A stretch of 64,000 nt of DNA from Planctomycetota bacterium (GCA_026984035.1 JALSSW010000028.1:5745-69744); one strand, 5' to 3'; numbered from the stretch's first letter, positions 3,925 to 48,391 are shown. Notes: a model not told the origin generated them from the sequence alone. Translations and numbers: made by a program.

Positions 3925-5473
3925 GCCTGAAAAAGGAACGAGGCCATTCAATAGGGATCGTAGGAGGGGAAGGATCCCTCCCTTTCGGCAAGGACAGGCT
4001 CTGCTTGTCTCATGGTTGACCCAGGACCTCCTGGGAAGGGCCCGGCGGTCAGGAAAGAAGGGGACCTCTTCCTTGACTCCGACTCTGTTTTCCCAGGGCT
4101 TCTTAACGTTTGCCTTTGCAGCTTTGACCTACCAAGAGGTTGAAACCACTGCTTTTCTGGCTGGTAATATGGCTTTTGCCATCGTTCTCACTTTGATAGC
4201 CATGTTGGGGGAGGTGCTGGGAAAGGACCGGAGGAAGGCTGATGAAGACTTTGTTTTAACGAGTCCGATTCCAACCTTCGTTTTTAACTCGGTCAAAATG
4301 GTACATTCACTCCTGCTCCTTCTCCTCTTCCATGTTGGATTGGTGCTGGCCCCTGCCATCCTGGGAATGTGGAACAGTGGTGTTGCCTATGTTTGGGCTC
4401 TCCCTCTAGTCTCCCTTCTTCTTGTGGGAGGATTGGTTGGGATCCTTGCATCACTGATGGAGCTAATTCATAAGCTGCGGGGTCCTTCGGCGCTTGCTTC
4501 CTTTACGAGCATAGTTCAGACCTTTTTGTTGTCAGGCTTATTTTTAGGCTCTCTGTTGGGTTTGCAGGCCATGTTCCAGGGTGCCCAAAGCTTTCCAGGG
4601 GGGCGAACTCTTTTGCATTCTCTTCCGCCCTATTGGGGGGCGAGGCTGGCTCAGTGGATTGTGGATGGCCGTGATCCGGGAGTGTTTGCCTGGTTGCTTG
4701 TTGGTTTATTTCTTACGCCTTTTTTGATCCAAGGTATGACTTCGGTTCTCCCCCTGCGGCCGGGGGAAGGGCCGCAGAAACGAATGAGGATTCCGGTATT
4801 GGCTCGTCTTTTTGGAGTGGGTGCCGCTGATAAGGGGATTCTTCAATACACCCTTATCCTATTGGGGCGCGACCAAGCTTACCGGCTTCGGGCAATCCCT
4901 CTGCTTGGGCTTCCCGTCGCGGTTGTATTACTGGCCATGCATGCAGGAATTTCAGAGCAAGAGATTCCCTTTTTTTTTGCCTTAGTTCATAACCTTCCTT
5001 TGGCCTGGTTGCCTTTTCTCCTCCACTTCGTTCCCTATGCAACGGATCACGAGGGATCATGGCTGACCAAGCTTGGGCCGGAAGATCCCCTTCGGACGGG
5101 TCGCCGAGGGGTTCTCCTCTCCTTTGCCGTTTGGATGCTTCGCCTCCAATTCCTGTTGTTCCTTTTGGACTTTGGGTTCCGGGGGTTCGGACCGGCTCTT
5201 CTTACAAGCTTGTTGGGTCTGGGGCTGGCATTTACGATTCTTCCTTTCTTAGTGGCGTCAATAAAAGAGCTTCCCTTTTCACAGGATCCTGCCGATCTGA
5301 AGCCCCCCGAGCTGGGTGGAGGTCCCATGCTCCTTGCTGTTCTCATACCGGTTCTTGCGTTGGGATTGGAGGTCATCCCCAAGGGATTGGGAGCCTTGCT
5401 CTGTGCTCTTTTATTGGTAGTCGGAAGAACGTTTGTGGCGAGGAGTTTTCGTCTGGGAAAAAAGAGGTCATGA
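3887..5473 (+). CDS. Large polytopic membrane protein of unknown function (about 12 predicted TM helices)
   Basis: 528-aa ORF with a basic N-terminus followed by repeated hydrophobic helices. Three in-frame ATGs (3887, 3908, 3911) all overlap the upstream stop at 3924, so the exact start is uncertain. Confidence 0.6.
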   Translation: MKRICSRMMGDPKPEKGTRPFNRDRRRGRIPPFRQGQALLVSWLTQDLLGRARRSGKKGTSSLTPTLFSQGFLTFAFAALTYQEVETTAFLAGNMAFAIVLTLIAMLGEVLGKDRRKADEDFVLTSPIPTFVFNSVKMVHSLLLLLLFHVGLVLAPAILGMWNSGVAYVWALPLVSLLLVGGLVGILASLMELIHKLRGPSALASFTSIVQTFLLSGLFLGSLLGLQAMFQGAQSFPGGRTLLHSLPPYWGARLAQWIVDGRDPGVFAWLLVGLFLTPFLIQGMTSVLPLRPGEGPQKRMRIPVLARLFGVGAADKGILQYTLILLGRDQAYRLRAIPLLGLPVAVVLLAMHAGISEQEIPFFFALVHNLPLAWLPFLLHFVPYATDHEGSWLTKLGPEDPLRTGRRGVLLSFAVWMLRLQFLLFLLDFGFRGFGPALLTSLLGLGLAFTILPFLVASIKELPFSQDPADLKPPELGGGPMLLAVLIPVLALGLEVIPKGLGALLCALLLVVGRTFVARSFRLGKKRS

Positions 5474-5604
5474 GTCAGGAAAAGGAGAAAAAACAGGATC
5501 CCAAATCGGCCCTTCGACGAGAATTTATCTCAATTCTTTTGATGTATGTGGCCCTTACCGTTCTTCCTTTCCTTACGGGGTTTGCTTGCAGCGGTTCTCT
5601 GTGA
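5470..5604 (+). CDS. 44-aa single-TM microprotein, translationally coupled to the upstream membrane protein
   Basis: ATGA overlap: ATG at 5470-5472 and the upstream TGA at 5471-5473. Sequence is MSQEKEKKQDPKSALRREFISILLMYVALTVLPFLTGFACSGSL, a charged N-terminus plus one hydrophobic helix. It is the 3' part of the 5059-5604 track ORF. Confidence 0.4.
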   Translation: MSQEKEKKQDPKSALRREFISILLMYVALTVLPFLTGFACSGSL

Positions 5605-5908
5605 CAGAATGTGCGGGGTGAGGGGGAGGACTTTTTCCCCTGGAGGCGACAGATGTCCGCAAACCAACGCTTAGATTCGTCTGAATCGATGACCACCCAA
5701 TCCGAATCGGGTCAAAACCTGGAGTGTGTTTTGAAAGGGCAGGAGGGTTCGCTCAAGGGCAAAGCCAAAGAAACGCCCCTGGTCCTTTCTCCAAAGGGTT
5801 CTTTGCCCATCATTGCCCAGAATTCCTCCAAGGGGAAAACGAGTCCTGCTCTTGGTGGCTCCCCGGACCGTTACCAGGAAGTGCATCCCCTCATCCAGTT
5901 GTAAGCGG

Positions 5909-6709
5909 TCAGCCCTTATGGAGCATGTTACTGTTCAGAAGTTTCCGGGTCATGCGCCTAAGCCTCATTCCTGTGATTCGGAACAAGGTATCCATGAATC
6001 TTAAGGCCAGCTCTGAGTGTCGCTGACGTAACCAGTTGAGGCCGTCCTTGGGTATTGCGATTAGGTCTGTGGGTTCGAGGCATGTGATTTCTAAATCATG
6101 AGGAAGTCCCACCAGAGCGGAGACTTCACCAAAGATTTGGCCGCTCCCTGCAATCTCAATGGAAGCAAATCCCTCTTGCCGCCCTGGCCCACAAAGCTTG
6201 ACAAGCCCCTTTTCTACAATGAAAAGGCTTTTTGCTTCGTCCCCTTGTCTTGCGATTACGGCACCAGCCTCAAGAGAGCGGCGGTGAGCCACGGATGCAA
6301 TGGCCATGAGATCTAACTGATTGAGACGTGAGAAGGCAGGAAGCTCCCTGAAGGTCTGAATCAGATCATTGATGAGTTCCATTGAGATGCGTTGAAAAAG
6401 CTTAACGCGAAGTCCGGAGAGTCCTTCGAAGCGAATCCCTGCCACGTATCGGGGTCCGTCGGTTCCATTGTCGGAAGGAAAAACCCAGCGGACGATTCCC
6501 TGGACCTCTAAGTCGGGATCATTTGGGGTTGGGCGAAAACGGGCTTCGATGTTTGTTCCCACAAAAAGGGGGTGCCTTCCTTGAACCATGATCCCACCCG
6601 CGCTCATGTTGAGGGCTTGGTAGGTCCGTATCTGTCCCGTTTGAGGATGGGTGATTTGGATCGGGAAGTGAACGCCGACCCTTTGGTCTTTACGTTCTTT
6701 GTTTTCCAA
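5909..6709 (-). CDS. PilZ domain + cyclic-nucleotide-binding-like domain protein
   Basis: The N-terminus carries the PilZ c-di-GMP motifs RKDQR (RxxxR) and NMSAGG (D/NxSxxG). The C-terminal half has a CNB fold signature, LFIVEKGLVKL...GQIFGEVSALVGLPHDLEITCLEPTDLIAI. Confidence 0.75.
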   Translation of the reverse strand: MENKERKDQRVGVHFPIQITHPQTGQIRTYQALNMSAGGIMVQGRHPLFVGTNIEARFRPTPNDPDLEVQGIVRWVFPSDNGTDGPRYVAGIRFEGLSGLRVKLFQRISMELINDLIQTFRELPAFSRLNQLDLMAIASVAHRRSLEAGAVIARQGDEAKSLFIVEKGLVKLCGPGRQEGFASIEIAGSGQIFGEVSALVGLPHDLEITCLEPTDLIAIPKDGLNWLRQRHSELALRFMDTLFRITGMRLRRMTRKLLNSNMLHKG

Positions 6710-6711
6710 GA

Positions 6712-7251
6712 TCAGGCCTCTTGACTAAAATCGTAGATATAGGAGATGGCTTCCTTGCGAAGGATTGCGTAAGGGAGTTTTTCGAGCCGTTGGAAGTCTT
6801 TCCCCATTCCATGGTCGAACCCTCGGATCGTGCAATCCTCCATGACAAAGAATCGGTTCTCAAGGGCTTGGGCTTCATAAGCCCCAGGTCGAATTAATCC
6901 TGTGAATTCCAAATTCACGGCTCCGTGGTGAAAGGCTCGAATTCGGATGGATTTATCGCTAACCCCCTCGGAGGCAAGCGCTTTCTGGTAGAAGTCTCCG
7001 GAAGTTTCCACTAACTCATGGGCAAGAACGATCTGGTTCAGGTTGATGTGCACTTGGGGGGTTCGGATTGTTTCTCCTCGTGCAAGGTCAACCATTGTTG
7101 CACCCGAGATGACCAAAAAGTTCCTTCCATAGGTGTTAAGGAGTTTGCTTAGGCGATGGAATTTCCCCTCAACCTTTCCCTTGATGAGGAAAGCTTTGGT
7201 CAAGATGACATCCTCGATCATTTGCGATATTTGGTTTCTTCCATTCGCCAT
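6712..7251 (-). CDS. Hypothetical protein (179 aa) that looks like two tandem related halves; operon partner of the PilZ-CNB gene
   Basis: Its stop lies 2 nt before the PilZ gene start. There are no recognisable catalytic motifs. Both halves share a beta-rich pattern (GKVEGKFHRLSKLLN...INLNQIVLAHEL versus IRIRAFHHGAVNLEFTG...). Confidence 0.55.
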   Translation of the reverse strand: MANGRNQISQMIEDVILTKAFLIKGKVEGKFHRLSKLLNTYGRNFLVISGATMVDLARGETIRTPQVHINLNQIVLAHELVETSGDFYQKALASEGVSDKSIRIRAFHHGAVNLEFTGLIRPGAYEAQALENRFFVMEDCTIRGFDHGMGKDFQRLEKLPYAILRKEAISYIYDFSQEA

Positions 7252-7319
7252 GCTGCTGTCCCTTCATACTGAAATGATGGCCACCCTTGCATTCCCAAGA
7301 TTTCGGAGGTTTTCGGCCA

Positions 7320-8789
7320 TCAATCTTCTAAAACTTTGAGGGCTTCCCCTACCCCATAAAAAGAACCTGTGACGAGGATCCCCCTCTTGGGTGATTTCGC
7401 CAGGATCTTTTTTACTGCTTCTTCGATAGAGCCGGTGGTTTCAAAAGGGATGCCCCGATGTTCAAACCACCCAGCCATTTTTTTGGGGTCTTGGCTTTGC
7501 TTTTCACAAAGCGGTGCCCCGTAGGCTTTATCGACGAAGGGGACTAGGGAGCCTAACCCCTCCTGCCAATGCTTGGTATCCGCAATAGCGAATACCAAAT
7601 CAAAAGGAGGTTCAGGAGCTTGTTCCCCATGACTGGTCTTCCCGAAGATCTTCCGGAGATCTCGGCCCAAGGCAGCCAGAGAGTCGTTGGTGTGGGCCCC
7701 ATCGAGGAGTGCGGTCCTCCCACCCTCGAGCCTTAGGATTTGGAATCGTCCAGGGGGATGGAAACGTTTGAGCGATTCCACAAGGGTGTCAGGGGAAAGT
7801 CCTTTGGTCTGTCTCCTTTCCCAAAGGGGGGTTTGTTGAAAGAGAAGGAGAGCGAGGGCAAAGGAAAAAGCTTGAGTTTCCGTGTGGATAGGAAGTTTCA
7901 ATGGCTTCGGGCCAAGGAAGGGGTGGCTCAAGAGCATTCCCCCGATTCCTTGGTCGAGGATGTTGCATTTGAATTCGGCGGTTAGTGGAATCAGAGGGGC
8001 TTGGACATGCTGGGCTTTTGTCTGGAGAATGGCGGCTGCAGTTCCTGTGAGCCCCGAGACACAGGGAACTCCCGGGCGCAGGATACCTGCCTTCTCGCAG
8101 GTTATGTCTTCGATGCGGTTTCCCAAGGTGCTTGTGTGTTCTCGTTCAATCGAGGTGATACAGCAGGCATGTTTTGGGACTGCGGTGGTAGAGTCCAAGC
8201 GTCCTCCCAGGCCTACTTCCAAAATCACGAGATCAGGGTTCTTCTCGGCGAAAAAGGAGATGGCTACAGCCGTAAAGGCTTCAAACCAGGTTTGGTTGTC
8301 GATGAAATGATCCGCGACGCGTTCTAGGTGGGGAATGAGAGCTTTTTCGGGGGCCATTTCTCCATTTAGGAGGATTCGTTCTCTCACATTTCGCACGTGT
8401 GGGGAGAGGTAGACTCCTACGGATGCCCCTATTGAGCGGGCGAGTGCTCCCGTCATACAGGAGACGGTCCCCTTCCCCTTGCTTCCACCAACCTGGACGA
8501 CGCATTGAAGTTTTTTTTCAGGGTTTCCAAGCCTTTTTAGGAGAGTTTCCATCTTACAGAGATCGAAACGATAATTCCTTGTCACCGGAGCTTTCTCGTA
8601 GTTTGTTAGGTTTGATAGGCGTTTGAAGGCTTTGTCAAATGCTTTAGTGCTCACTACTTCACTCCCCCCACTCCAAAGGGCCTTAATGATGAAACCTTGC
8701 TCAATTTGCCGATATATACAGTATGTGGGTGAGTCTGCTTGGTATTTCTCCTGGACCTTGTTGAAAAAATCCAGAATGGGAGAAATCAA
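7320..8789 (-). CDS. folC: Folylpolyglutamate synthase / dihydrofolate synthase (Mur ligase family)
   Basis: P-loop VVQVGGSKGKGTV preceded by LLKRLGNPEKKL. Mur-ligase middle and C-terminal blocks are present (DSTTAVP, LLDGAHTNDS). The N-terminus is about 40 aa longer than typical, so the start is uncertain. Confidence 0.8.
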   Translation of the reverse strand: MISPILDFFNKVQEKYQADSPTYCIYRQIEQGFIIKALWSGGSEVVSTKAFDKAFKRLSNLTNYEKAPVTRNYRFDLCKMETLLKRLGNPEKKLQCVVQVGGSKGKGTVSCMTGALARSIGASVGVYLSPHVRNVRERILLNGEMAPEKALIPHLERVADHFIDNQTWFEAFTAVAISFFAEKNPDLVILEVGLGGRLDSTTAVPKHACCITSIEREHTSTLGNRIEDITCEKAGILRPGVPCVSGLTGTAAAILQTKAQHVQAPLIPLTAEFKCNILDQGIGGMLLSHPFLGPKPLKLPIHTETQAFSFALALLLFQQTPLWERRQTKGLSPDTLVESLKRFHPPGRFQILRLEGGRTALLDGAHTNDSLAALGRDLRKIFGKTSHGEQAPEPPFDLVFAIADTKHWQEGLGSLVPFVDKAYGAPLCEKQSQDPKKMAGWFEHRGIPFETTGSIEEAVKKILAKSPKRGILVTGSFYGVGEALKVLED

Positions 8790-8808
8790 GGAATGTCGTC
8801 CTTTTTAA

Positions 8809-9246
8809 ATGAGGTGGAGCATGGGGATAAGCCACCAAGTCAAGGTGTTTGTCTTTAGGGTCTTGGGGAGCCAGGTGGATTTTCTCCTGGTTCGAAAATG
8901 GCCCATTGTTGAGCATACCTTCGGGCCGGTGCGGGGAACCATCAAGGTGGAAGAACGACCAAAGGAGGCCGTTCTAAGGGAGGTTCGAGAAGAGACAGGT
9001 TTGATTCAACCTGCCCATCTTATCGATCTCCACCATGTGTCTTCTCTTGTTTTTGGGGAGGAAGCTCTTTGCGAATGGGAATTTGGATATCAAGTTTCCC
9101 CACTAAGCCTGGCAAAAGAAATCGAACCTCGTGGGGAGGTGGTAGATTCACTCTGGGCTGGATTTGATCGGGCTTTTGATTGTCTGGAAATGCCGGAGGA
9201 TCGTTCCGCCCTTGTCCGGCTGAAAATGACTCTGGAGGCGGGTTGA
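8809..9246 (+). CDS. Nudix hydrolase
   Basis: Complete Nudix box GTIKVEERPKEAVLREVREETGL (Gx5Ex7REUxEExGU). An alternative start at ATG 8821 is possible. Confidence 0.8.
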   Translation: MRWSMGISHQVKVFVFRVLGSQVDFLLVRKWPIVEHTFGPVRGTIKVEERPKEAVLREVREETGLIQPAHLIDLHHVSSLVFGEEALCEWEFGYQVSPLSLAKEIEPRGEVVDSLWAGFDRAFDCLEMPEDRSALVRLKMTLEAG

Positions 9247-9312
9247 GAATCCGCAATTAGGGGGGCTTTTTCATCCAAGACTCGCAAGAAGGGGCGGCTA
9301 TGATCCGCAGCC

Positions 9313-11016: not shown

Positions 11017-12417
11017 GTGTCGCTAAAGAACCATTTGAAACCTCCTTCCGTTTCCATCCGAAGGAAACGGGAAGGACGCAAAAAGAAAGGAGCCCGGGGA
11101 GCATCTATCCGCATAGGGGTATTGATCGTTGCCGTAGTCTTGCTCGGGTCCATTATTTTTGGAGGTTTGGGGAATCTGCTGAATCCTCGGGAAGATACTA
11201 CCCTTATCACTCCACCCCGGAACCAGATCCCCCTTGATGCGGGTTATACGGTTCCCGTTCCCGAAATTGACCCTTCTTTGTTTAAGGATGTAAGAGAAGA
11301 GACTTCTGCACAAAGATATATCAACGAACCTAAGCCTTATTTGCAACTTCTGCGGGCAGCCATCAAATTGGTTCCAGGCTCCCTGCGAGAGATGGGCCTT
11401 CCGGATCGGCCAGTCCCTATCTCCCTCCTCCAGGGAAACCCGGATAAATACCGAGGCGCCCCCCTCTTCTATGAAGGTGAACTTCTTAGTTTGAGGCCTC
11501 CGGAAAAGGTTCCAGGTTTAGAAAGTTTTGAGGTCACGGAAGGTCTGCTCCAGACTGATTCCAAGGAGAATGTCCTTTTTGCGATTATTGAACCTGCTCC
11601 CAAGGACATTCACCCAGGGAGTCGAGTGCGCATAGAGGGTTTTTTCTTCAAGCTTCGTGATGAGAACTTCCCATTCAAGGTAAAAAAAGCTCCGTTCTTG
11701 GTAGGGGCCAATTTGAAGCATGCCTTCAAGGAATTCCCTCCGGTAAAAACCCTCGATAAAAAGATCCTCGGGCAAATCCGGGATAAGAGCCTCCGAGAAG
11801 CAAAAACCATTGAAGACCTCCCTTTCTTTCATCTTGCTTCCTGGATTATGAACCAGAAAGATCGAAAGAATTGGCCCAAGGAAACCCCGGAACTTACTCG
11901 GAAGATTGCTGTCCATATGGCGCAGGCTGATGGGACGATTCCCCGGGGCAAAATGTTCAAGATCATTGCAAACCTCCTTTGGGTGCAGGTAATTAAGGCT
12001 GAGCCGAATCCCCTTAAGGTTTCTTTCTGGTCCCGGGTTTGGCTCTACCACCCCACGATTGGCACCATTGCTTTAAAAATCCCCGGGAAGCTTCCTCACA
12101 ATTGGAAAACCGGTGACGAGGTCGTTGCTTATGGGGTTTTTATGAAGAGGATCTACTACGAGACGGGAGCCTCCCGAAAGGAGTGGAAATATCGGTTTCG
12201 GATCATCCCCTTCTTCGTTGCCGATCAGCTCTATTATTTGAAAGTGATCGATAACCCCCTCAACCAAATCTTGCGAATCTTTTTCGTGGCCCTTACGGCT
12301 TTTTTGGTCTTGGCTTTGATGATTTTAGCAGTTCGGGATTCCAAGGCGGATAAAGAAATTCGAAACCGCCTTCGCGCAAAGAAACTCAAGCGGATGCGAA
12401 ACCGGATGGGAGAGTAG
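11017..12417 (+). CDS. Hypothetical membrane-anchored protein (N- and C-terminal TM helices)
   Basis: 466-aa ORF with a GTG start. Basic N-terminus, then TM helix IGVLIVAVVLLGSIIFGG. C-terminal TM helix FFVALTAFLVLALMILAV followed by a basic tail. No known motif recognised. Confidence 0.55.
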   Translation: MSLKNHLKPPSVSIRRKREGRKKKGARGASIRIGVLIVAVVLLGSIIFGGLGNLLNPREDTTLITPPRNQIPLDAGYTVPVPEIDPSLFKDVREETSAQRYINEPKPYLQLLRAAIKLVPGSLREMGLPDRPVPISLLQGNPDKYRGAPLFYEGELLSLRPPEKVPGLESFEVTEGLLQTDSKENVLFAIIEPAPKDIHPGSRVRIEGFFFKLRDENFPFKVKKAPFLVGANLKHAFKEFPPVKTLDKKILGQIRDKSLREAKTIEDLPFFHLASWIMNQKDRKNWPKETPELTRKIAVHMAQADGTIPRGKMFKIIANLLWVQVIKAEPNPLKVSFWSRVWLYHPTIGTIALKIPGKLPHNWKTGDEVVAYGVFMKRIYYETGASRKEWKYRFRIIPFFVADQLYYLKVIDNPLNQILRIFFVALTAFLVLALMILAVRDSKADKEIRNRLRAKKLKRMRNRMGE

Positions 12418-12422
12418 GAAGG

Positions 12423-13499
12423 ATGAGTTGGGAACTCTCCTTTCCGAGTCGGAGGGAAGCGCAAACTCAAGTTGAACTTGGTTGCGATAGGTTTGGGGAA
12501 CTCATCCACTGGCTCCGGCAACGGGAAGGACGTTTCTACCTGGTTGTAGATGAAAGTGTTCTCCTTTTTCATCCCCATCGCTTGGCCCCCCTTAAGGAAG
12601 AGGCCTTGGGAGTTTCGATTGTTCCAGGAGGGGATCGCTCAAAAAAACCTTCCAAATTGGCGGAACTCTGTTCTGAGATGGCGGAGGTTGGGCTTGGGCG
12701 GAGGGATGCAGTTGTTGTGGTGGGGGGAGGGAGCATCCTCGATTTAGGTGGGTTGGCTGCAGCTTTGTACCTCAGAGGGGTGTCCCTCATTCAGGTTCCA
12801 ACGACCTTCCTCTCCGCTGTGGATGCTTGTCTTGGAGGGAAATGTGCCGTAGATCTCCCGGAAGGGCGAAACCTGATGGGGGTTTTTCATTTTGCAGAGA
12901 AGCTTTTGGTGGACCCCCTTTTCTTAGGAACGCTCCCCCCTTCCGAATTCTCCAACGGCCTCGGCGAAGTGGCAAAGTATGGACTCGGTTTTTCCGAAGG
13001 GCTGATGGATTGGCTTCTTGCTCTTCCACCTCTTGGTCCTTCATCGGATCCGGTTTTACTGGAAGACCTCGTGGGGAAGTGTCTTCGAATTAAGTCCGAA
13101 GTGGTGATGCGGGATCCTTGGGAGAGGGATGGAGTTCGTCGTACCCTTAATCTAGGGCACAGTCTTGCGCATGCCCTTGAGGCTTTTTCTGGACCGGGAA
13201 GGATTGGTCATGGAAGGGCTGTCGGCTTGGGTCTTCGGGCAGAGTTGCGTATGGGGGGGCTTCCTGCAAGGGAGCGGAGGAAAGCAGAGGTTTTCTTGGA
13301 TCATTTAGGCCAGGCATCTTCCCTTGTAGAGGTTTTCTCTCGTCCTCCTGGAGTCAAGGAACTCGAACCTTTCTTTTTGCGAGACAAGAAAACTGAGGGG
13401 GCATTCTTGTTCGAACCAAGAATTGAAACTCTAGGTTCATGTTCCATGAAGCGAGTAGATCCTGTCTTGCATTTGAAAGATCTTCTCAAAAGTCTTTAA
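12423..13499 (+). CDS. aroB: 3-dehydroquinate synthase
   Basis: VVVVGGGSILDLGGLAAALYLRGVSLIQVPTTFLSAVDACLGGKCAVD and LNLGHSLAHALE are typical of AroB. Confidence 0.9.
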   Translation: MSWELSFPSRREAQTQVELGCDRFGELIHWLRQREGRFYLVVDESVLLFHPHRLAPLKEEALGVSIVPGGDRSKKPSKLAELCSEMAEVGLGRRDAVVVVGGGSILDLGGLAAALYLRGVSLIQVPTTFLSAVDACLGGKCAVDLPEGRNLMGVFHFAEKLLVDPLFLGTLPPSEFSNGLGEVAKYGLGFSEGLMDWLLALPPLGPSSDPVLLEDLVGKCLRIKSEVVMRDPWERDGVRRTLNLGHSLAHALEAFSGPGRIGHGRAVGLGLRAELRMGGLPARERRKAEVFLDHLGQASSLVEVFSRPPGVKELEPFFLRDKKTEGAFLFEPRIETLGSCSMKRVDPVLHLKDLLKSL

Positions 13500-13630: not shown

Positions 13631-14947
13631 CTAAACCGAGATTTCTTTTTTTCGAGAGCTGTCTTTTGTGGGCCTCGTCGAGTTTCGGCCCTTTTTCTCC
13701 AAATCCGGAATGAGGCGGCATTCACAGAGTGACTCAAGGGCTTCTCGATAATTGTTGAACTCTTGATCCCAGGAGTGTTCGTTCAGGAATCTTTTTGCCC
13801 TCCTCGCCATGGCTTGAGCTTCGGCAGGATGTTCGTAAAGGAATACAAGGTGGTTGGCAAAAGTCTCGATGTCGCCGTCTTCAAAATAGAGAACTTCTCC
13901 CTCCTGAAAGAGGGTTCGCATGATCTTGGTGTTTACCGTCACGATGGGCAGGCTCATTGCCACATATTCCGGGACTTTGAGGGATAATGCTATGTCGATG
14001 TGGACATCCATATGAGGTGTGAAGGTCCCAACCGAAGAATGACTCATGACTTCGGGAACTTGTCGGAGATCAATGGAGGGCCGAATATCCAATCGATGGG
14101 AAACTCCTAATTCCCCTGCCAATCGTTCGAGTGCAGCAAGGGGTTCTCCTTCTCCATCGGCAAGTTTGGGGTGAAGCACCAGGCGAATCCCCGGTATTCG
14201 GTCTTGGGCCATGGCCAAAACTTTGACTAGCTGATCCGGGCCGTGTCGGTCGGAAACCGTTCCCAGGTAAAGGAGTCTGAATTCTTCAGGATCTTCTGGT
14301 CCTTTCCAGGGATGCGCCCCCTCATTGAAAAGCTCTGTGTCGGGAGCGTTAAGGACAACTAGCGAATCTTTCTTTTGGCAGGTTCCGCGACCAATGGCGA
14401 TGTTTTGAAAAATGGAGGTCGCAAAGATCACTTTATCAGCAAAAAGATGTGAGGCTATCTCTTGGACACGAAGGGGAAAAATCATGGGGTGGTTCAAGTT
14501 GCAGTGGAATTTACTGGCATACACCTCTGGCATCAGGTCGTGAACGTCCAGAACTATTTTGGTTCCGAACACCTTTGGGATCAGGGCGCTGAATACTAAA
14601 AAGTCGGGCATGTTGTGGACATGAACGACATCGAAACGCTTGTGAAAGGTTTTTTTTGTCAGGTGCCAGAAGGCGAGGAAGAGAAAGACAAAGTACTCGA
14701 ATAGATAGCGAAACGTTCCGCCTCGTTTGCGATCCAGGGGGGCTCGAACCAGGTGTACACCTTCAAGGATTTCCTTCTTGGGGAGGCCCTTTCCCCTAAG
14801 AGCAATGATCTCGACATAGTGTCCTAATTTGGCCAGTGATTCGGCATATCTCCGAACCCGAGCGTCCTTTTCGTAGTACGCATGGACCACCATTCCGACC
14901 CGGATCTTCCTATGGGGCTTCCCTTGCTTTGTTTCTTCAGTTTTCAT
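13631..14947 (-). CDS. Glycosyltransferase family 4 (GT-B fold)
   Basis: KIRVGMVVHAYYEKDARVRRYAESLAKLGHYVEII is a typical GT4 N-terminus. I use the internal ATG at 14947 (MKTEETKQ...), because the track ORF start (15091) would overlap the upstream gene by 155 nt. Confidence 0.8.
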   Translation of the reverse strand: MKTEETKQGKPHRKIRVGMVVHAYYEKDARVRRYAESLAKLGHYVEIIALRGKGLPKKEILEGVHLVRAPLDRKRGGTFRYLFEYFVFLFLAFWHLTKKTFHKRFDVVHVHNMPDFLVFSALIPKVFGTKIVLDVHDLMPEVYASKFHCNLNHPMIFPLRVQEIASHLFADKVIFATSIFQNIAIGRGTCQKKDSLVVLNAPDTELFNEGAHPWKGPEDPEEFRLLYLGTVSDRHGPDQLVKVLAMAQDRIPGIRLVLHPKLADGEGEPLAALERLAGELGVSHRLDIRPSIDLRQVPEVMSHSSVGTFTPHMDVHIDIALSLKVPEYVAMSLPIVTVNTKIMRTLFQEGEVLYFEDGDIETFANHLVFLYEHPAEAQAMARRAKRFLNEHSWDQEFNNYREALESLCECRLIPDLEKKGRNSTRPTKDSSRKKEISV

Positions 14948-16181
14948 CAATCTTTTGTTCGAGGATTGTTCCACAGAGATTGAGCAGGTCCAGGACTCTT
15001 TGATCCCAGGAGTCATTGTGGACAGCCGCTTTACGCAGCTTGGCTTTTTCCTCGTTGCGATCCTTGTCCAGAGCGATTTGGATGGCTTCAAGGAACTCCT
15101 CTGGGTTCTGAGCGATTCTCACAATGTTTTCGTAGCGATGGATTTCTGGGAAATCCATCGTCACCACGGGTAAGCCGAGCGCAAGATATTCCTTAAGTTT
15201 GATCGGGTTGCAGTTTTTGATCCAGTCGTTTTTCTTCCATGGCATGATGGCAACGTCGAAGGCTGATCCAAGTTTGGGGATTTCCTCAAAGCTTCTGGGG
15301 CCTAACCACCTCACATTTGGAAGCTCTGTAATGCTCTCCAATGAGCTTGTTGCATCTCCAATCAGCAGGAGTGTGCCCTGGGAAAATCGTTGAGCGATTT
15401 TTTTTAGAAGGGAGAAGTCAACCAGATGTTCTCGCAGCCCTCCAAACCATCCAATGATAGGCCTTGGCAAGTCCTTTAATTCCTTTGGCAGTTCAGATGA
15501 GGGGACCTGTTTGAAATGATTTGTATCAACCCCATGATCGAAAAGGATTGCTTTGTCGCCGCATAGGTAGCTCTCTTCTTCCATGAGAGCTTTGCTGACA
15601 TAAAGGACGATGTCAGCTTTTTCCATTAATTCTTTTTCCAGCCTTTCGATGTATCCCCCATCGGCTTCTCCAAAGGCGGAGTGTTTGTCCGAGCGGTTAT
15701 AGATCAAGCAGTCCATCGGTTCATCGCGAAGAACCTCCATGGCGGTTGGTACCGTGACAAAATAAATGGGGTTTTGAATCCTATTCTTTTTCTTTGCCAG
15801 GTTGACTTGAGCCCTGATCATCCGGGCATTGAGAGCCCGCATTTTTGGCGAGCCATAGAGAGGGAGAAGGATAGGGCTGAGTACATGATATTTGGGAAGG
15901 TGGGGTAGCGGCGTCTTTAGAAACTTGGCCATACTTTTGGCCTTACGAAGAATCCGCTTGAGAAAGCCGCTACTCTTTCCCGGAGTTGGCATGCGCATAC
16001 CAATACTATTGATTAGTAAAACTTCCCTCGTTTCAGCAAGGCGCGTCATAAGCTGAAAATCGGAATGAGCCCGGTTGTGATACCACCAATCCAGCCCGCA
16101 AAAACAGACAAAGGGTCGGTTGGCACAAGAATCCATCCGCGTGCTTAAGATCGCCTCTCCCATCTTCGGCTTTTCACTCAT
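14937..16181 (-). CDS. Glycosyltransferase (GT1-like, TuaH-type)
   Basis: C-terminal block FDVAIMPWKKNDWIKNCNPIKLKEYLALGLPVVTMDFPE is typical of GT-B sugar transferases. It overlaps the downstream GT4 start by 11 nt. Confidence 0.7.
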   Translation of the reverse strand: MSEKPKMGEAILSTRMDSCANRPFVCFCGLDWWYHNRAHSDFQLMTRLAETREVLLINSIGMRMPTPGKSSGFLKRILRKAKSMAKFLKTPLPHLPKYHVLSPILLPLYGSPKMRALNARMIRAQVNLAKKKNRIQNPIYFVTVPTAMEVLRDEPMDCLIYNRSDKHSAFGEADGGYIERLEKELMEKADIVLYVSKALMEEESYLCGDKAILFDHGVDTNHFKQVPSSELPKELKDLPRPIIGWFGGLREHLVDFSLLKKIAQRFSQGTLLLIGDATSSLESITELPNVRWLGPRSFEEIPKLGSAFDVAIMPWKKNDWIKNCNPIKLKEYLALGLPVVTMDFPEIHRYENIVRIAQNPEEFLEAIQIALDKDRNEEKAKLRKAAVHNDSWDQRVLDLLNLCGTILEQKIDEN

Positions 16182-16491
16182 TCTGTGAGTTGTGCTTTCC
16201 AGAATTCCCCCATGCTTCTTGGAAGAGGTTTCTTGGTAGAAAATCCCCCATATCCTACCCTTGGCTTCTCGACTTCCTAATAGGATCCACTTAACCCGAT
16301 CTCACGAATAAACCGGATAAGGGAGATCCTGTTCTCAGTGAAAAACGCCTGGTAGATCGGGGGAGGGTCTGAATAATGCGGGATGGGTCATGCAAAAGCC
16401 CGAGAAGAACATGGTCGCTTATCCTCTTTGGGGAGAAAAGCGGAAAAAGAGGCTTCGATGGAGGCCTTCCAAGTGCCGAAACACTATAGAT

Positions 16492-17379
16492 ATGGAAGAA
16501 CAACTAAAGCATCTTGACGGGGATTTGGAGACTTCCTCTTCTGCGGGGAGGACTTTCACTTGGGCTTCCTTCTTCCTGCTGTTTTTTGTTTTGGAGCCGT
16601 TTTTGGAACTAGAGGTCCGCCTTTGGTTTTCTTCCTCTAAGCAAAACTCTGCGGCACTGATCGGTTTTGTTGGAGCCCTTTGGATGTTGCTTGGCAGGCG
16701 CAAGGAAGTGTTCGGGAAACCGGGTCGGTCTCGGAACTGGTCGGTGTTCTTCTCTGCGCTGTTCATCGGATGTCTCTGGTTTTCGCTTCTAATGGATGTC
16801 CGCTCTGGTGTTGCTTTTTTCTCCATTTTGCTCCTTTTTTCTTCCCTCCACTATCTATTTGGGTTCCGCTTTGCCCCTTCGACCCTTTTTGCGGGACTCT
16901 TTCTCCTTGCCACAGTTCCGATCCCAGGTGGGTTCATGGCAAAAATGGGACAGGTTTTAGTGGAAGCTGCGGCCGCCTTGGCTTTCGGGATCCTTAGGCC
17001 CTTCTATTCGGGTCTCGACCTTTTGGGTTATAGCTTGGTTCTCCCCTCTGGGGCGGCCGTGGAAATCGTAGATGATTGCAATGGTTTGGCCGGGATTCTC
17101 CTCTTTCCCATTTTAATCTTGACCCTCCTTGCCTTTTGGAGAGTGAGAAGTTGGAAGGTCGGGGGGCTATTCCTTGGACTTTCTTTTTTGGCCGCGTTTG
17201 GAGGGAACCTCCTCAGGATCTTGCTCACAGCATTCTTCGAGTTCCAGGGTTTATCTTGGAATCATTCTCCCGTTTTTCATGAGGTGCTGGGATTGGTCAG
17301 CTTGGCGCTCTTTTTTATTCCTTTGGCTTGGCTTCTTTACAGGTTCAAAGGTCCAGGATGCGAGGGGGAGAAGCCATGA
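16492..17379 (+). CDS. Exosortase family protein (EpsH/Xrt-type transpeptidase)
   Basis: Polytopic membrane protein with Cys motif EIVDDCNGLAGILLF, Arg motif GGNLLRILLTAFF and a downstream His (FHEVLGL). The start is taken at ATG 16492 (MEEQLKH); the track ORF begins at 16390. Confidence 0.75.
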   Translation: MEEQLKHLDGDLETSSSAGRTFTWASFFLLFFVLEPFLELEVRLWFSSSKQNSAALIGFVGALWMLLGRRKEVFGKPGRSRNWSVFFSALFIGCLWFSLLMDVRSGVAFFSILLLFSSLHYLFGFRFAPSTLFAGLFLLATVPIPGGFMAKMGQVLVEAAAALAFGILRPFYSGLDLLGYSLVLPSGAAVEIVDDCNGLAGILLFPILILTLLAFWRVRSWKVGGLFLGLSFLAAFGGNLLRILLTAFFEFQGLSWNHSPVFHEVLGLVSLALFFIPLAWLLYRFKGPGCEGEKP

Positions 17380-18023
17380 GAACCCGAATCGTATTTTTCC
17401 TAATTCTCCTTTGTGGGAGTGGCTTAGTTTTAGGGGAGCGTTTTTTTTCTTCTTCAGGTGATGCGCGTTTTGACTTTCCTGCCTTGGGGGAGTCCATCGC
17501 TGAGCTTTTTCCAGGCCCACAATGGGTTGAGGATCGTTTTCAGCCCAGCCCTCTGCTCCCCAAAGACTATATTCTTTTTGTCACTAAGGAAGGAGAGACC
17601 CCCAAACTCTCGATCTATCTAGGGTATTATCCAGGGATCATCTTTTTGGGGGAACAACCTCATGATCCTGAAGTTTGTTACCAGGCCCAGGGTTGGGATC
17701 TGGCAAAGCATCGAAGCGTTGAGGCCGTTCCCATGGGGGAAGGGAAGGTTGCCTATGTCCAGCGTTTGGAGGTTGCTTATGGGGAGGAGCAACGTGAAGT
17801 GGTGTTTTGGAGGCAAGAGCCTGGGCGCATCCCCGAAAAAGAGGAGAGCGGAATCGTAGCTCTTGGGAGAGATCTTGTTGGAAGGGTTGGGAGGGGAAGG
17901 CGGGACTACGCTTGGGTCAGGATCGAAAGCGATCCTGGCTTTCTACCAAGACCCCTAAATGATGTTTGGAAAGCCCAGATCAGAGCTCTGATCTTAAGAG
18001 TCTCCTCATGCTTTGGTGATTAA
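17376..18023 (+). CDS. EpsI-family exosortase-associated protein
   Basis: ATGA overlap with the exosortase stop (17376-17379), preceded by GGGGGAG. N-terminal TM helix, then LSIYLGYYPG...HDPEVCYQAQGWDL, which matches the EpsI hallmark HxPxxCxxxxGW. Confidence 0.7.
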   Translation: MRTRIVFFLILLCGSGLVLGERFFSSSGDARFDFPALGESIAELFPGPQWVEDRFQPSPLLPKDYILFVTKEGETPKLSIYLGYYPGIIFLGEQPHDPEVCYQAQGWDLAKHRSVEAVPMGEGKVAYVQRLEVAYGEEQREVVFWRQEPGRIPEKEESGIVALGRDLVGRVGRGRRDYAWVRIESDPGFLPRPLNDVWKAQIRALILRVSSCFGD

Positions 18024-18416
18024 GAGCCCAAACCATTTCTATGACCATTCGGTCCGCTGGATGAATGACCTGGCAACAACAACGAGGCGTTCTTTCTCCC
18101 AAACATGGTGGTTTCGGATCCCCTTTGCGTTTCCCGAGCTTTAAGGCGCAAAAGGGATCGATGGCCTTTTTGCAAAAGGAGAATTTGGAATAGCCTTGGC
18201 ATAGCCCTTTTGGGCGAAGCCTTCTTCTTTAGGCCGTTCATGCAAGCCTTATCAGGAGCAAGGCATTTCCCCATCTCTTGTTCGTGAATCCATCGGGTTA
18301 ATAGGGATGAGGCCCACATGCTTTTGAAAGACCCAATGGCTGCTTGGGGGCTTCAGCATTGGTTCATGGGGCATGGGGATTTGAAGGTGCCGGGGTTGGG
18401 GTTTTTAGGATGCGAA

Positions 18417-18635
18417 TCAGCGCCTTTTCTTTTTAAATGCCAAGAGACTCATTCCTGCCAAGGTTGCGCCGAGGATGGCGAGAACCAGGGTTGAACTTGG
18501 TTCGGGAGTAGGGCGGCCAGGATTGCTGTGGCCATAAAGGGTCGATGCTCGATTCATCCTGCTCGTCTTCATTTGGGACGGAAGGGCAGGAGTCAAGATA
18601 AAGAGCAGGAGGGTTACTGTGATGATTTTATTCAT
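18417..18635 (-). CDS. 72-aa PEP-CTERM sorting-signal miniprotein
   Basis: N-terminal signal peptide MNKIITVTLLLFILTPALPSQ. C-terminal TPEPSSTLVLAILGATLAGMSLLAFKKKRR gives a PEP motif, a TM helix and a basic cluster. Confidence 0.75.
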   Translation of the reverse strand: MNKIITVTLLLFILTPALPSQMKTSRMNRASTLYGHSNPGRPTPEPSSTLVLAILGATLAGMSLLAFKKKRR

Positions 18636-19316
18636 TTTGGGTGATGATACTTAGGTCGGACAATTACGGAACAAGAGGGCCTTTGCTCTAAGAGAAAGAA
18701 ATCTGCCAATTCTCTTCCCAAGCTGAAAGAACCCCCATTGGGGATCCCAAGCTCACAAAGAAAACCTGGAACAAAGCTCCATCTTAAGCTTGCTCATGCA
18801 AATTGCTTCGAAAACTTTGCATTCTCTTTGGCCGCTTTCATCAAGGAACCGGGAAGAGTGGAGCATCCACAAAAGGTGGGGAGCTAAGTTGGCTATGAAT
18901 AATTGCGTATTAAATATGGCGGGTAGCCATGAGAAAGCAAGGGAGAAGGGAGAAAAGAACTGGACTTTGTTTCTTCGTGGATTGGATAAAGGAAGGAATA
19001 GAATATTTTTAAAAAGCCGGAGAAAATTTGAAACTTTGGGAATTCGCCCTTCTATTTGTCTGTCCCAAGGGACGGGGATTCTATCCTTTGTCCTAAGTGG
19101 AGAGAGAGAATATACTCCGAATGGCGGGCTAACTGATCTTGGCCTTGCCAAAAAGGATTTAGAGAGAAAAGAACAGTACGCACGAGGGTTCACACCGAGA
19201 GATTCCGGGCACGGGGTTCGGGATCTCGGGGGCACGGGGTGGACCCTCGGCTTTTTTCTGTACGACCCGTCTGCTCGGCCCGGGGGAGTACCGGAGTAAA
19301 GCTCCTAGGGGAGCCT

Positions 19317-19346
19317 CAGAAAAAGGGCAACCCCCCGAAGGAAGCC
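19317..19346 (-). terminator. Possible intrinsic terminator about 200 nt downstream of ettA
   Basis: The minus strand reads GGCTTCC-TTCG-GGGGGTT GCC followed by CTTTTTCT. It forms a C(UUCG)G tetraloop hairpin containing several G-U pairs. Confidence 0.3.
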
Positions 19347-19548
19347 AAAATCGACTCCAACGAGGGGCTTGGGGTTCAAAACTGGGGGACTTATCGGGGC
19401 CAGCTGGTATTTAGGACGACATCTACGGCCTTTCGAGTTCCCTAATTCTCAAAAAATGTTTTTTTTAGAGTCAAAGAGTCCCTCGGAACAAGCTGGTTCC
19501 AATAGGGATCCCAATAGTGGCAAGAACCCCTGGGTTTTCGGGCTAAGC

Positions 19549-25100: not shown

Positions 25101-25716
25101 GTTGATTGGGTCCACTTGGAGGGTGCATGTTGAGGGCGGGGAGTTGAAGGAAATCCTTGCGCGTCCTGAGGGGGTTTTGGGAGCCTTTTTACATGGTCGC
25201 TTGTTGGCAGCGGGGGTGGCTTTTCAAAACCTTGGGATAGGAATCATGAGCAGCCACCATACGGATGGGGAGATCATCCATCGAGTGGTACGCAAGATGG
25301 GCTATGTGACAGTAAGGGGGTCTACGACTCGGGGAGGAGCCCGGGCCTTGCTCGAACTGTCTCGATTGGAATCTCAAATTCCCCTTGCGCTTACTCCTGA
25401 TGGGCCACGTGGGCCCGAGGGAAAACTCCAGGATGGATTTGCCCTTCTTGCTTCCAAGACAGGCAGGGCGATCATCCCTGCAGGAATCGCAGCCACCCCT
25501 TGCGTGCGCTTGAATTCTTGGGATCGCATGGTCATTCCCCTGCCCTTTGCCAGGGTCCAGGTCTTTCTTGCTGAGCCTATTGTTCTTTCTCAGGAACTTT
25601 CCCGAGACGAGATTTCAGCGTCAACGGATCTGGTAAGAGAGAGAATCCTGGAAATGGAGCGCCTTGCATGGGAGAAACTCGGCAAGGATCCTCTTAAAGA
25701 ATTACCGCCGGCCTGA
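25000..25716 (+). CDS. DUF374-type (lysophospholipid acyltransferase-like) protein
   Basis: SSHHTDGEIIHRVVRKMGYVTVRGSTTRGGARALLEL...LALTPDGPRGPEGKLQDGFALLASKTGRAIIP matches the DUF374 pattern. The start is uncertain: ATG 25000, or TTG 25102 just after the upstream stop. Confidence 0.65.
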   Translation: MESKQKDLKSHQKKIQKKWRKAIWTARIGTPIYRLIGSTWRVHVEGGELKEILARPEGVLGAFLHGRLLAAGVAFQNLGIGIMSSHHTDGEIIHRVVRKMGYVTVRGSTTRGGARALLELSRLESQIPLALTPDGPRGPEGKLQDGFALLASKTGRAIIPAGIAATPCVRLNSWDRMVIPLPFARVQVFLAEPIVLSQELSRDEISASTDLVRERILEMERLAWEKLGKDPLKELPPA

Positions 25717-27256
25717 AGTCTTCATTCTCCGACATCGAGAAATCTTGAGATTGCAAAGAGAGTGTTTGCTCTTGGAGTTCCAAGGGGGTTCCTGGGAATG
25801 GAGCAAGAACGGGATCCGTTTGATCTTGGGCCCAATCTCGGTGCCAATGGGCCAGGCAGTTGAGGTCTTGGCTGCGAAATGCCTTTCCGAGGGCCAGGGA
25901 GTATTCTACCTGCCTTCCATGGAAGCCCAAGGGGAGGATGGCTCCATCGAACTGCTCAAAGCGGAGAGGGCCTTTCAAGATCTCCAAACATTGTTGCCCC
26001 AATTGGTCAGCTTCTCTGTTCATGCCTAAAGCTCGCAAGAGAAAACGCAGGTTTTGACGGGGAGGGAGATAGTCGTTCATATTTTTTGCTGCACGCTCAA
26101 GGAGTCCGATCCAGTATTCTCCCACCTTTGGGTTCGTGGGATGGTTCTCGCTTAAATGGCGGTGGATGAGAGCCGCTGCAAAGTTGTTGTAGACACGTGG
26201 ATCGTTCGGGCTCAGAGAATGAGCGAATTCGAAGGCAGCAACCAGATTGGAAAGAGGTGCCCAAGTTAGGGTCATCATCTCTGCTCGACAGAGAGCTCGT
26301 GTCGCTTGTTGTGTTGGATTTCGGTGAGAGAGGTCAATGGAGCGAAACAACTCTTCGAGAGGTTCACAAAGCTTTGCCATGCGATAGTTCTGCACCCTTT
26401 GGTGGGCTGCTTTTGCGATGGCTTTTCTCTCTTCATTGTGCTCAAGGAGCCAATGAACCTTTTGTTCGAAGTCATTTGGCCCATAGAGCACCACTTCTTT
26501 ATCTGGTTCAAAGAAGTTCCGAATCTCCGTGTTCTCCCGTTCCATTAAGAGTGCGGCACCGCAAGCAGGCGCCTCGAAGCAGCGCAGGTTGATCTCTCCG
26601 CGGATGCTCCGATTGAAGGCGATTTTCGAACGCGAGAGAATGCGTCCATAAGCTTCCCCTTGGGGGGCATTTCCGAGGAAGACTTTACAGCTTGAAAGGT
26701 CCTTGAGGCGTTGGGTCCAAACGTGTCTTTCTCTTTGGATCTCTGGATTCAAATTGCCTAAAAAACAGAGGTCAATGTCACGTTCTAGAGGGTTTCCTGC
26801 GTTGTCCTTGTAGATCTTGTGTACATCAGGTCGGAAAGAAAATTGACACCAGGGTTCAATTCTATGAAAGGGAAGACGGCCAAGGACTTGGAGGCCGGGA
26901 TGATCCACGAGAAGTAGATCAACAACGGACCAAAGCCTGGTTTGGCAAGGCAGAGTTAGATTGTAGTCCGATATGACTCCCACAACGGGATAGGGGCAAC
27001 GCTCAAGCCCTTCCGGTAAGGGCTCTTGGTCTGGCCACCAGAGCATCATTGCATCGGGTTGAAAACCTTTTGCCCGGTTTCGGACTTCTCTATGGATGTC
27101 CTCGATGCATATGGAAGATGTGTCCAAGGGAATGTCGTAGGAGTAGGTTCGATCGCCCACCCTGCGTCCCGTGGCAGGGCCAAAACTCAAGAATTCGAAG
27201 GGAAAATCCTCTCTCTTCCCAAACATCTCGAAAGGAAAGTTGGTTAGGAGGCGCAT
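25694..27256 (-). CDS. CgeB-like glycosyltransferase (Glyco_trans_1_2 type) with a C-terminal helical-repeat extension
   Basis: DLCFLGNLNPEIQRERH...AFNRSIRGEINLRCFEAPACGAALLMERENTEIRNFFEPDKEVVLY is typical of CgeB/DUF3880-type GTs. About 190 aa of helical tail follow. Confidence 0.7.
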   Translation of the reverse strand: MRLLTNFPFEMFGKREDFPFEFLSFGPATGRRVGDRTYSYDIPLDTSSICIEDIHREVRNRAKGFQPDAMMLWWPDQEPLPEGLERCPYPVVGVISDYNLTLPCQTRLWSVVDLLLVDHPGLQVLGRLPFHRIEPWCQFSFRPDVHKIYKDNAGNPLERDIDLCFLGNLNPEIQRERHVWTQRLKDLSSCKVFLGNAPQGEAYGRILSRSKIAFNRSIRGEINLRCFEAPACGAALLMERENTEIRNFFEPDKEVVLYGPNDFEQKVHWLLEHNEERKAIAKAAHQRVQNYRMAKLCEPLEELFRSIDLSHRNPTQQATRALCRAEMMTLTWAPLSNLVAAFEFAHSLSPNDPRVYNNFAAALIHRHLSENHPTNPKVGEYWIGLLERAAKNMNDYLPPRQNLRFLLRALGMNREADQLGQQCLEILKGPLRFEQFDGAILPLGFHGRQVEYSLALGKAFRSQDLNCLAHWHRDWAQDQTDPVLAPFPGTPLELQEQTLSLQSQDFSMSENEDFRPAVIL

Positions 27257-45853: not shown

Positions 45854-46032
45854 TCTTGGACTCTATTCGAGAGAAGGGGGACATCCATGTTTTCCTGTCA
45901 GAATTTTTTGAAATTCTACAGCCAATTTTTGGCGCGGAGCGTCTGTGTTCTTGCCGGAGGCCTTTTTAGGGGATCCTGAAACAGCTTTGGGAGAATGCGT
46001 CCGGTTTTATGCCTTTACTAAGAGGGGGGAGC

Positions 46033-48389: not shown

Positions 48390-48391
48390 GC

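Follow-up and report, generated by a model that had tools for sequence, protein, structure and literature searches.

Among the systems described to date, XrtA/PEP-CTERM (EpsH, EpsI, PrsK/R/T; Haft 2006) combines an exosortase-fold membrane protein with a Cys/Arg/His triad, an adjacent or fused EpsI, glycosyltransferases (GTs) next door, and dozens of scattered targets, each made of a signal peptide, a PEP motif, a helix and a basic tail. NCBIfam also holds dedicated subtypes, including XrtJ/PExPT-CTERM (TIGR04200), XrtC/VPDSG-CTERM, XrtD/VPLPA-CTERM and XrtY with the glycosyltransferase XYAG1, in which a specialised exosortase goes with its own flavour of C-terminal signal; the target is sometimes very small (the TIGR04200 model has 57 positions), and a dedicated glycosyltransferase is sometimes present. 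Archaeosortase A (ArtA)/PGF-CTERM belongs to a homologous family of enzymes for which the same triad is proposed; among its members, ArtA alone has experimental evidence for a coupling between removal of the C-terminal helix and lipid attachment (summarised in bioRxiv 10.1101/2023.06.07.544157). About 20 years after the prediction of exosortases, the cleavage site, the acceptor and the role of EpsI are still unsettled (PMC12188702; bioRxiv 10.1101/2023.06.07.544157). Exosortase chemistry is hard to follow because the model organisms have dozens of large, heavily modified substrates and sprawling exopolysaccharide (EPS) loci. Here we analyse a 64-kb stretch of DNA from a Planctomycetota bacterium (GCA_026984035.1, JALSSW010000028.1:5745-69744; "the window"). 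A cassette of about 5.7 kb within it (13631-18635, plus an RNA gene reaching to about 19258) encodes two GTs, an exosortase, an EpsI-like protein and one small peptide with a PEP-type C-terminus. It is probably an exosortase system of an unnamed subtype in which one enzyme is dedicated to one substrate, self-contained and carried by a small Planctomycetota group.

Like the XrtA system, the cassette possesses a triad-bearing exosortase, an EpsI, neighbouring GTs and a target of the same architecture. Unlike that system, it lacks PrsK/R/T and Wza/Wzc/Wzx/Wzy, its exosortase stays far under the XrtA cut-off, its single tiny target is adjacent rather than scattered, the signal of this target falls under the TIGR02595 cut-off, and an RNA gene is associated. 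With the dedicated NCBIfam subtypes it shares a specialised exosortase and a C-terminal signal of its own, and it differs from them in reaching the cut-off of no model (XYAG1: 18.7 versus 400 bits) and in the motif PTPEP followed by a longer helix. The ArtA system differs from the cassette in being archaeal, in its motif, in its large S-layer glycoprotein substrates and in having no EpsI. In two unclassified exosortase-EpsI pairs (loci L009 and L013) the layout is that of the cassette, with EpsI directly followed on the opposite strand by a single PEP-CTERM gene that is small and rich in Lys/Arg. Their exosortases exhibit 30-35% identity to the window exosortase, and neither reaches a subtype cut-off. 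In contrast to the cassette, their targets are 103-106 aa long with canonical PEP-CTERM scores (26-27 bits versus a cut-off of 16), no RNA was detected at either locus, and the contigs end before any GT region becomes visible. Since NCBIfam already lists dedicated subtypes that have a signal, a tiny target or a GT of their own, the cassette does not define a new category. It belongs to the exosortase family, yet neither to XrtA nor to another of the named subtypes, and its signal differs from the canonical PEP-CTERM domain.

Six lineages carrying the cassette, the total across the databases searched, were recovered; all cassette sequences, from the window and its relatives alike, come from metagenome assemblies, and the relative loci compared with the 64-kb window span at most 21 kb each. 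Next to the window lineage, four others are close and have window-type flanks: L003 (JGI 3300039274), L004/L005 (GCA_054038375.1), L006/L008 (Planctomycetota bacterium HyVt-539) and L095/L096 (GCA_027024805.1), the last detected via its peptide. The sixth, L007/L014, is a deep branch with flanks unrelated to those of the window. The window exosortase was also found with identical sequence on two other assemblies. A genome collection yielded no match to the exosortase sequence alone and one locus when queried with the exosortase alignment; a metagenome collection yielded no match to the exosortase alignment and, with a GT4 alignment as query, mainly unrelated EPS-type GT4 loci. In a search for close relatives of the L007 exosortase, the query itself was the sole match.

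All six lineages keep the same order: GT4, GT, the divergent exosortase, EpsI, then the peptide and the RNA. The earlier note on this DNA had asked about synteny in relatives, and the gene set indeed proved syntenic in the five close lineages as well as in the distant L007. An all-against-all comparison of open reading frames (ORFs) between L007 and the window returned as specific matches the two GTs, the exosortase-EpsI pair and the non-coding RNA region, together with a weak match between generic ABC-ATPases (27% identity). The window GT4 and its L007 orthologue exhibit 62% identity, the second GT and its orthologue at the equivalent position 49%, and the exosortases 38% (phmmer) or 34% (BLASTP). 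That order and orientation are kept while all surroundings differ is strong evidence that the cassette is a functional unit.

The exosortase gene probably occupies 16492-17379 (+). The ORF in full covers 16390-17379 (+) and extends upstream of the probable start, M35 (16492), which we prefer because relatives begin at the equivalent residue; the resulting protein is 295 aa long, a length shared with the relatives. It scores above the cut-offs of both family-level models, PF09721 (72.4 versus 25.7 bits, E = 5e-20) and TIGR04178 (38.4 versus 23 bits), and belongs to the exosortase/archaeosortase family. The motifs DDCNG, NLLRI and FHEV, listed in the earlier note, are all read in the protein. 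When 28 diverse exosortases are aligned, only seven columns are invariant, and the Cys, Arg and His of these motifs occupy three of them. The proposed catalytic triad, predicted as Cys196, Arg242 and His263, is intact. A hydropathy plot exhibits eight hydrophobic segments, two pairs of which overlap, and an AlphaFold2 model based on the 28-sequence alignment is a helical bundle (pLDDT 89, pTM 0.83). Searches of the PDB by sequence and by fold matched no solved structure.

The earlier note had held that assignment to a well-described subtype such as XrtA, with dozens of PEP-CTERM substrates and a standard EPS locus elsewhere in the genome, would speak against a special subtype. No such assignment resulted: the protein falls into no described subtype, the best subtype score being that of XrtA itself (TIGR03109, 47.6 versus 208 bits). 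The 8TM EpsH model (TIGR02602) is likewise not reached (54.8 versus 105.55 bits), nor are XrtT (32.4 versus 250), XrtD (28.6 versus 400), XrtN (27.2 versus 200) and XrtV (24.6 versus 313), and XrtJ gives no match at all. None of the models XrtB/C/D/F/H/J/N/O/Q/T/V/W/X/Y/Z and CrtA/B/C is reached at its cut-off, those without a score quoted here lying below XrtV or giving no score. A HMMER search of 1.84 billion representative proteins returned 38 matches in total below E = 0.001. A single cluster, the exosortase's own clade, lies below E = 1e-30; the next match exhibits 38% identity (96 bits), and the ten nearest of these relatives likewise fit no named subtype. The clade comprises two 50%-identity clusters in this protein collection.

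The EpsI-like gene (17376-18023, +; 215 aa, PF11984) is coupled to the exosortase gene as the earlier note had read it, its ATG at 17376 overlapping the exosortase TGA at 17377-17379 to give ATGA. The protein scores 44.4 bits with PF11984/DUF3485 (cut-off 26.1) and 29.4 bits with TIGR02914 (cut-off 42.8); the models for EpsI types B and V are not reached either. Its hydropathy profile exhibits a single N-terminal membrane helix. In L007 the exosortase and EpsI form one fusion protein of 529 aa, the matching part of which is 38% identical to the window EpsI.

At a distance of 393 nt from the EpsI stop codon, on the opposite strand, a small ORF (18417-18635, -) encodes a 72-aa precursor, the predicted dedicated substrate. 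Its product reads MNKIITVTLLLFILTPALPSQ / MKTSRMNRASTLYGHSNPGRPTPEP / SSTLVLAILGATLAGMSLLAF / KKKRR and comprises a signal peptide, a basic core of about 25 aa, the motif PTPEP, a helix of about 21 residues and the KKKRR cluster. The signal peptide and the tripartite C-terminus (Pro-Glu-Pro, hydrophobic helix, basic cluster) are present in all six lineages, in agreement with the hydropathy profiles. A PEP-CTERM gene had been announced about 0.4 kb downstream of EpsI; its position, strand and architecture hold, whereas the curated cut-offs are not reached. The window peptide scores 9.5 bits with TIGR02595 (cut-off 16) and gives no match to PF07589 at E≤10, and the L003 and L007 orthologues score 8.6 and 7.7 bits with PF07589 (cut-off 20.7). 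The tail is thus PEP-CTERM by architecture only. A sub-threshold variant is what a signal co-evolving with a private enzyme would look like, and we count it in favour of a dedicated system.

The peptide is 72 aa long in all five close lineages and 75 aa in L007. Pairwise ratios of nonsynonymous to synonymous divergence (dN/dS) range from 0.06 to 0.20, with dS saturated at 0.9 or above, which identifies the 72-codon ORF as a gene under purifying selection. The conserved core reads R-[KR]-[AV]-[ST]-T-L-Y-G-H-x-N-P-G-R-P-T-P-E-P; the L007 peptide retains the basic residues, an [ST][ST][LF] motif, an aromatic residue and PTPEP. After both cleavages the predicted mature part would measure 23-25 residues (about 2.4-2.8 kDa, isoelectric point (pI) 8.7-11.5). 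When 5.8 billion protein clusters were searched with a profile of the peptide, five matched, all from cassette lineages; one of them carries the NCBI annotation of a PEP-CTERM protein from a Planctomycetes metagenome-assembled genome. In at least two assemblies (L001, L004) the 72-codon gene had been left uncalled. A match of the peptide to the LPXTG anchor model (17.1 versus 15.9 bits) was dismissed, as it reflects a generic helix and basic tail and the LPXTG motif is absent. A sigma-54 promoter, as reported for other PEP-CTERM genes, was sought before the peptide gene; one site with two mismatches lies at 18693-18708, and it was rejected because the window as a whole contains no more such matches than chance predicts (20 found versus 28 expected). 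Scans of the window for sigma-70 promoters and for terminators were at chance level overall.

In a six-frame scan, the window contains one C-terminus of the type P-[ED]-[PA]/hydrophobic/basic, that of the small ORF, and each relative locus scanned contains one, always in the ORF after EpsI. According to the criterion of Haft, a dedicated system is recognised by an enzyme and a sole target that are regularly adjacent, an adjacency that genomes with many targets lack (PMC3237569; bioRxiv 10.1101/2023.06.07.544157). The peptide gene adjoins exosortase/EpsI in six of six lineages and its family was found in those lineages only, and by this criterion the dedicated reading is supported. The "minimal, dedicated" subtype suggested in the earlier note therefore survives in its second term, through the adjacent sole PEP-type target and the co-distribution of enzyme and peptide; the first must be qualified, since the cassette includes a conserved RNA gene as well.

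An ordinary many-substrate PEP-CTERM/EPS system, of which the cassette would be the core while export genes, regulators and most substrates lay elsewhere in the genome, is an unlikely alternative, even though Planctomycetes were among the first phyla reported with PEP-CTERM proteins and species positive for them often have at least 20 (PMC1569441, PMC3237569). It draws on the fact that our view of the genome is 64 kb, and on other GT and TPR genes located 7-11 kb away. Across the whole window, however, no Wza/Wzc/Wzx/Wzy, priming transferase, PrsK or PrsR was found, which extends to 64 kb an absence first noticed in the vicinity of the cassette (the check combined precomputed Pfam matches for the identical contig, four Pfam scans and one NCBIfam scan, and covered almost all large ORFs). 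The TPR proteins of the window are not PrsT (at most 46.8 bits versus a cut-off of 312). Further GTs do occur: a GT2 gene (2672-3490) and, at 25694-28815, another two, one of them TPR-fused. Against a many-substrate system also stand the scores of the exosortase, far under every subtype cut-off including that of XrtA, and the adjacency of the target gene in every lineage, which has been reported for dedicated and not for many-substrate genomes (PMC3237569). The peptide signal is a private variant under the canonical PEP-CTERM cut-offs, the cassette travels as one piece between flanks that have nothing in common, and no second PEP-type C-terminus exists in the 64 kb or in any 20-kb relative locus.

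The two GT genes are both on the minus strand, divergent from the exosortase gene, and overlap as the earlier note had described. The first encodes a GT4-family enzyme of GT-B fold (13631-14947, -; 438 aa, the gene call being taken from relatives) with Pfam matches to Glyco_transf_4 (44.3 bits) and Glycos_transf_1 (43.5 bits). Since this gene starts at 14947, its overlap with the second GT gene (14937-16181, -; 414 aa) is 11 nt. The second product is also a GT-B enzyme (Pfam Glyco_trans_1_4, 43.4 bits). Its former label "GT1-like" is apt in the sense of the Pfam Glycos_transf_1 clan, whereas its best NCBIfam match is to TuaH, under the cut-off (93.5 versus 550 bits), so that we call it TuaH-like. 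Neither GT exhibits a hydrophobic segment or predicted membrane helix in its hydropathy profile, and PDB searches with both sequences gave no informative match. GT4 homologues with 55-58% identity are located in classical EPS loci without exosortase. The closest outside the cassette (55% identity) are those of L018 and L019 (at about 4000-9300), two high-GC EPS loci in which no exosortase occurs within 8 kb of the GT4 homologue. In loci of this type, ORF inspection, not hidden Markov models, points to neighbours that resemble a priming sugar transferase, a membrane-bound O-antigen ligase and Wza. The lack of membrane helices and the presence of close GT4 homologues in EPS loci suggest that the cassette GTs most likely build a lipid-linked glycan or a glycolipid. 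Such a product of two cytoplasmic GTs would be the natural candidate for the acceptor.

We propose the following scheme for the dedicated system. The 72-aa precursor would be exported by Sec and its signal peptide cut after the conserved LPSQ, the C-terminal helix and the KKKRR cluster holding the precursor in the cytoplasmic membrane. The membrane-embedded exosortase, through its predicted triad Cys196/Arg242/His263, would then cleave together with EpsI at the PTPEP motif. By analogy with sortases and archaeosortases, the basic, Ser/Thr-containing core of about 25 residues might be transferred to an acceptor, most likely made by the two cytoplasmic GT-B enzymes, to yield a small envelope-associated glycoconjugate. 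The divergent structured RNA of about 195 nt, as a member of the cassette, would probably regulate it. A bolder version, which we consider doubtful, sees in the cassette a portable machine for a ribosomally encoded envelope glycopeptide or glycolipopeptide, in which the exosortase joins the 25-residue peptide to a GT-built glycan under the control of a dedicated small RNA. If true, this would be the smallest natural exosortase system and the first with its acceptor encoded next door, readable by mass spectrometry of one short peptide. In any case the cassette shrinks the problem to about 5.7 kb, with one enzyme, one EpsI, one precursor (mature part of about 25 residues) and two candidate acceptor-building enzymes. 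It could be moved into a tractable host with peptide mass spectrometry as read-out, and is about the smallest natural system for finding what exosortases attach their targets to.

Several points weigh against the dedicated reading and its proposed scheme. That the substrate is single is judged from neighbourhood and co-distribution, over the 64-kb window and loci of at most 21 kb, and the peptide and the RNA are known solely from metagenome-assembled sequence. The GT pair is present without exosortase in L015 and GT4 homologues occur exosortase-free in unrelated EPS loci, so that the link between the GTs and the peptide is one of association. Because the cassette contains no priming transferase, flippase or outer-membrane export gene, the route of a glycan acceptor to the periplasm is unexplained. 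Finally, no exosortase has a determined cleavage site or acceptor (PMC12188702; bioRxiv 10.1101/2023.06.07.544157).

The short mature part of the peptide (23-25 residues), its basic character (pI 8.7-11.5) and its conserved [ST][ST][LF] motif might instead point to a ribosomal natural product or signal. In that case the exosortase would be a maturation protease freeing the core, and the GTs would glycosylate its conserved Ser/Thr residues. Peptide natural-product clusters likewise bring a precursor, a protease and tailoring enzymes together in a compact arrangement, and in Gram-positive bacteria the paired GT4-fold enzymes GtfA/GtfB glycosylate serine-rich proteins in the cytoplasm. We nevertheless consider this quite unlikely: the cassette contains no exporter or immunity gene, glycosylation in the cytoplasm prior to Sec export would be unusual, and experiments on exosortases and archaeosortases favour retention or attachment over release (PMC12188702; bioRxiv 10.1101/2023.06.07.544157).

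The intergenic DNA that separates the peptide gene from the ABC-F gene is better conserved than the cassette genes themselves. Window positions 18991-19263 match L003 and L006 with 78-80% nucleotide identity; for L004, a longer alignment gives about 70%. The corresponding value for the peptide gene is about 70%. Since the similarity appears in all six frames with no consistent reading frame, the region is not coding. We infer that it harbours an independent structured small RNA gene of about 195 nt, beyond the peptide gene and transcribed away from it, with predicted ends at about 19065 and 19258 (+). The RNA would comprise a 5' hairpin (about 19063-19104, +), a 3' hairpin (19180-19251, +) and a run of six U (19252-19257, +). 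A conserved promoter-like block precedes it, with TTGAAA at 19028-19033, a spacer of about 17 nt and TATTTG at about 19053-19058 (+), a putative promoter. The plus strand folds with -48.3 kcal/mol (z = -4.9), against -32.3 for the minus strand. A core of about 95 nt, which takes in the 3' hairpin, is unchanged across those four of the close lineages in which it is assembled, and 81 nt of it are 90% identical in L007, where they have the same position and orientation in the cassette. L095 also carries the promoter-like block and the 5' hairpin, its contig stopping before the 3' hairpin.

In the main stems of the 3' hairpin every substitution preserves pairing, including one double change from A-U to G-C. 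Several other stem substitutions interchange G-U with G-C or A-U; these make sense on the plus strand alone. In L007 the two outermost predicted pairs of this hairpin, beside the U-run, are unpaired. The 5' hairpin exhibits covariation as well, the covariation of the RNA being based on five sequences. The motif GGGCACGGGGU occurs twice in the RNA, in an apical loop and in an internal loop. The RNA is a new conserved motif: Rfam 15 gave no match at gathering score (noise of at most 15 bits at E≤10), and a covariance model built from the five sequences, run against 94 sources, matched at cassette loci only. A riboswitch or attenuator appears unlikely because neither clade has a plus-strand gene downstream. 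Nor is the 3' hairpin a mere terminator or mobile repeat, since it is invariant where synonymous sites are saturated, is present in single copy, and no upstream plus-strand gene ends there. A 167-aa ORF at 18790-19299 (+), called in one public assembly and overlapping the RNA, is probably a false gene; it has no family match, and its region is conserved in all six frames, not as a reading frame. A scan for RNA-mRNA duplexes over 44 translation-start regions was uninformative: the long duplexes that it returned carry no meaning, and cassette genes are not enriched among them. Of two patterns of the RNA core used to scan viral contigs, one had no match and the other one chance match. To our knowledge, no RNA gene has previously been reported in association with a protein-sorting cassette.

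It is very unlikely that the GT pair and/or the RNA are mere conserved neighbours of a functional unit formed by the exosortase, EpsI and the peptide. In favour of this reading, the GT pair of L015 and the GT4 of the EPS loci L018 and L019 do without exosortase, L013 (exosortase, EpsI and a small PEP-CTERM gene) has no space for the RNA past its peptide gene, and the RNA model has no match in L009 or L013. Against it, in L007, with unrelated flanks on both sides, the GTs (62% and 49%) and the RNA core (90%) keep their order and orientation and are better conserved than the exosortase (34-38%).

The intergenic region between the divergent GT and exosortase genes contains another conserved element, a 43-nt block (16252-16294) with the inverted repeat ATCCTA-N24-TAGGAT. 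It is near-invariant in four close lineages, in which the neighbouring intergenic DNA cannot be aligned, occurs in single copy in the window, and is unrecognisable in L007. It is a candidate promoter or operator. A second conserved element, the 9-mer GCCGAAACA, is located directly upstream of the exosortase start (16492). Past the RNA gene, and before the stop codon of ABC-F is reached, there is a further conserved non-coding block (19323-19460), which exhibits 78% identity to L003, is aligned in L004 and is absent in L006 and L007. On its minus strand, a hairpin and U-run (19347-19328) and a promoter-like site (19474-19445) can be recognised, and the block may be a second small RNA or the 3' untranslated region of the ABC-F gene. 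Where it would stand in L006 (about 12420-12834, past the RNA gene), tandem CCAAGGAGGTC-like units and a longer repeated GATCCCCAGCACAAAGCTGTTT unit are found.

Housekeeping genes flank the cassette directly: to its left one resembling dehydroquinate synthase, to its right ABC-F and PNPase. Base composition is even across the cassette region. A 466-aa protein (11017-12417, +) is conserved beside the cassette in the five close lineages, but not in L007. This ORF and four others in the window, at 3887-5473 (+), 29554-30690 (+), 40143-41957 (-) and 46009-47094 (+), have no Pfam match above cut-off; for four of the five, a scan of NCBIfam likewise gave none. The gene at 49336-55584 (-) encodes an Rhs/Tc-toxin-like polymorphic toxin of 2082 aa, in which SpvB, TcdB middle/N-terminal, FG-GAP and RHS-repeat domains are recognised. 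Two genes of the squalene/phytoene-synthase family and a flavin amine-oxidase gene, located at 47097-49261 and 56416-57330 (-), resemble the HpnC/HpnD/HpnE route to squalene, the set being split by the Rhs-like gene and a TauE-family gene.

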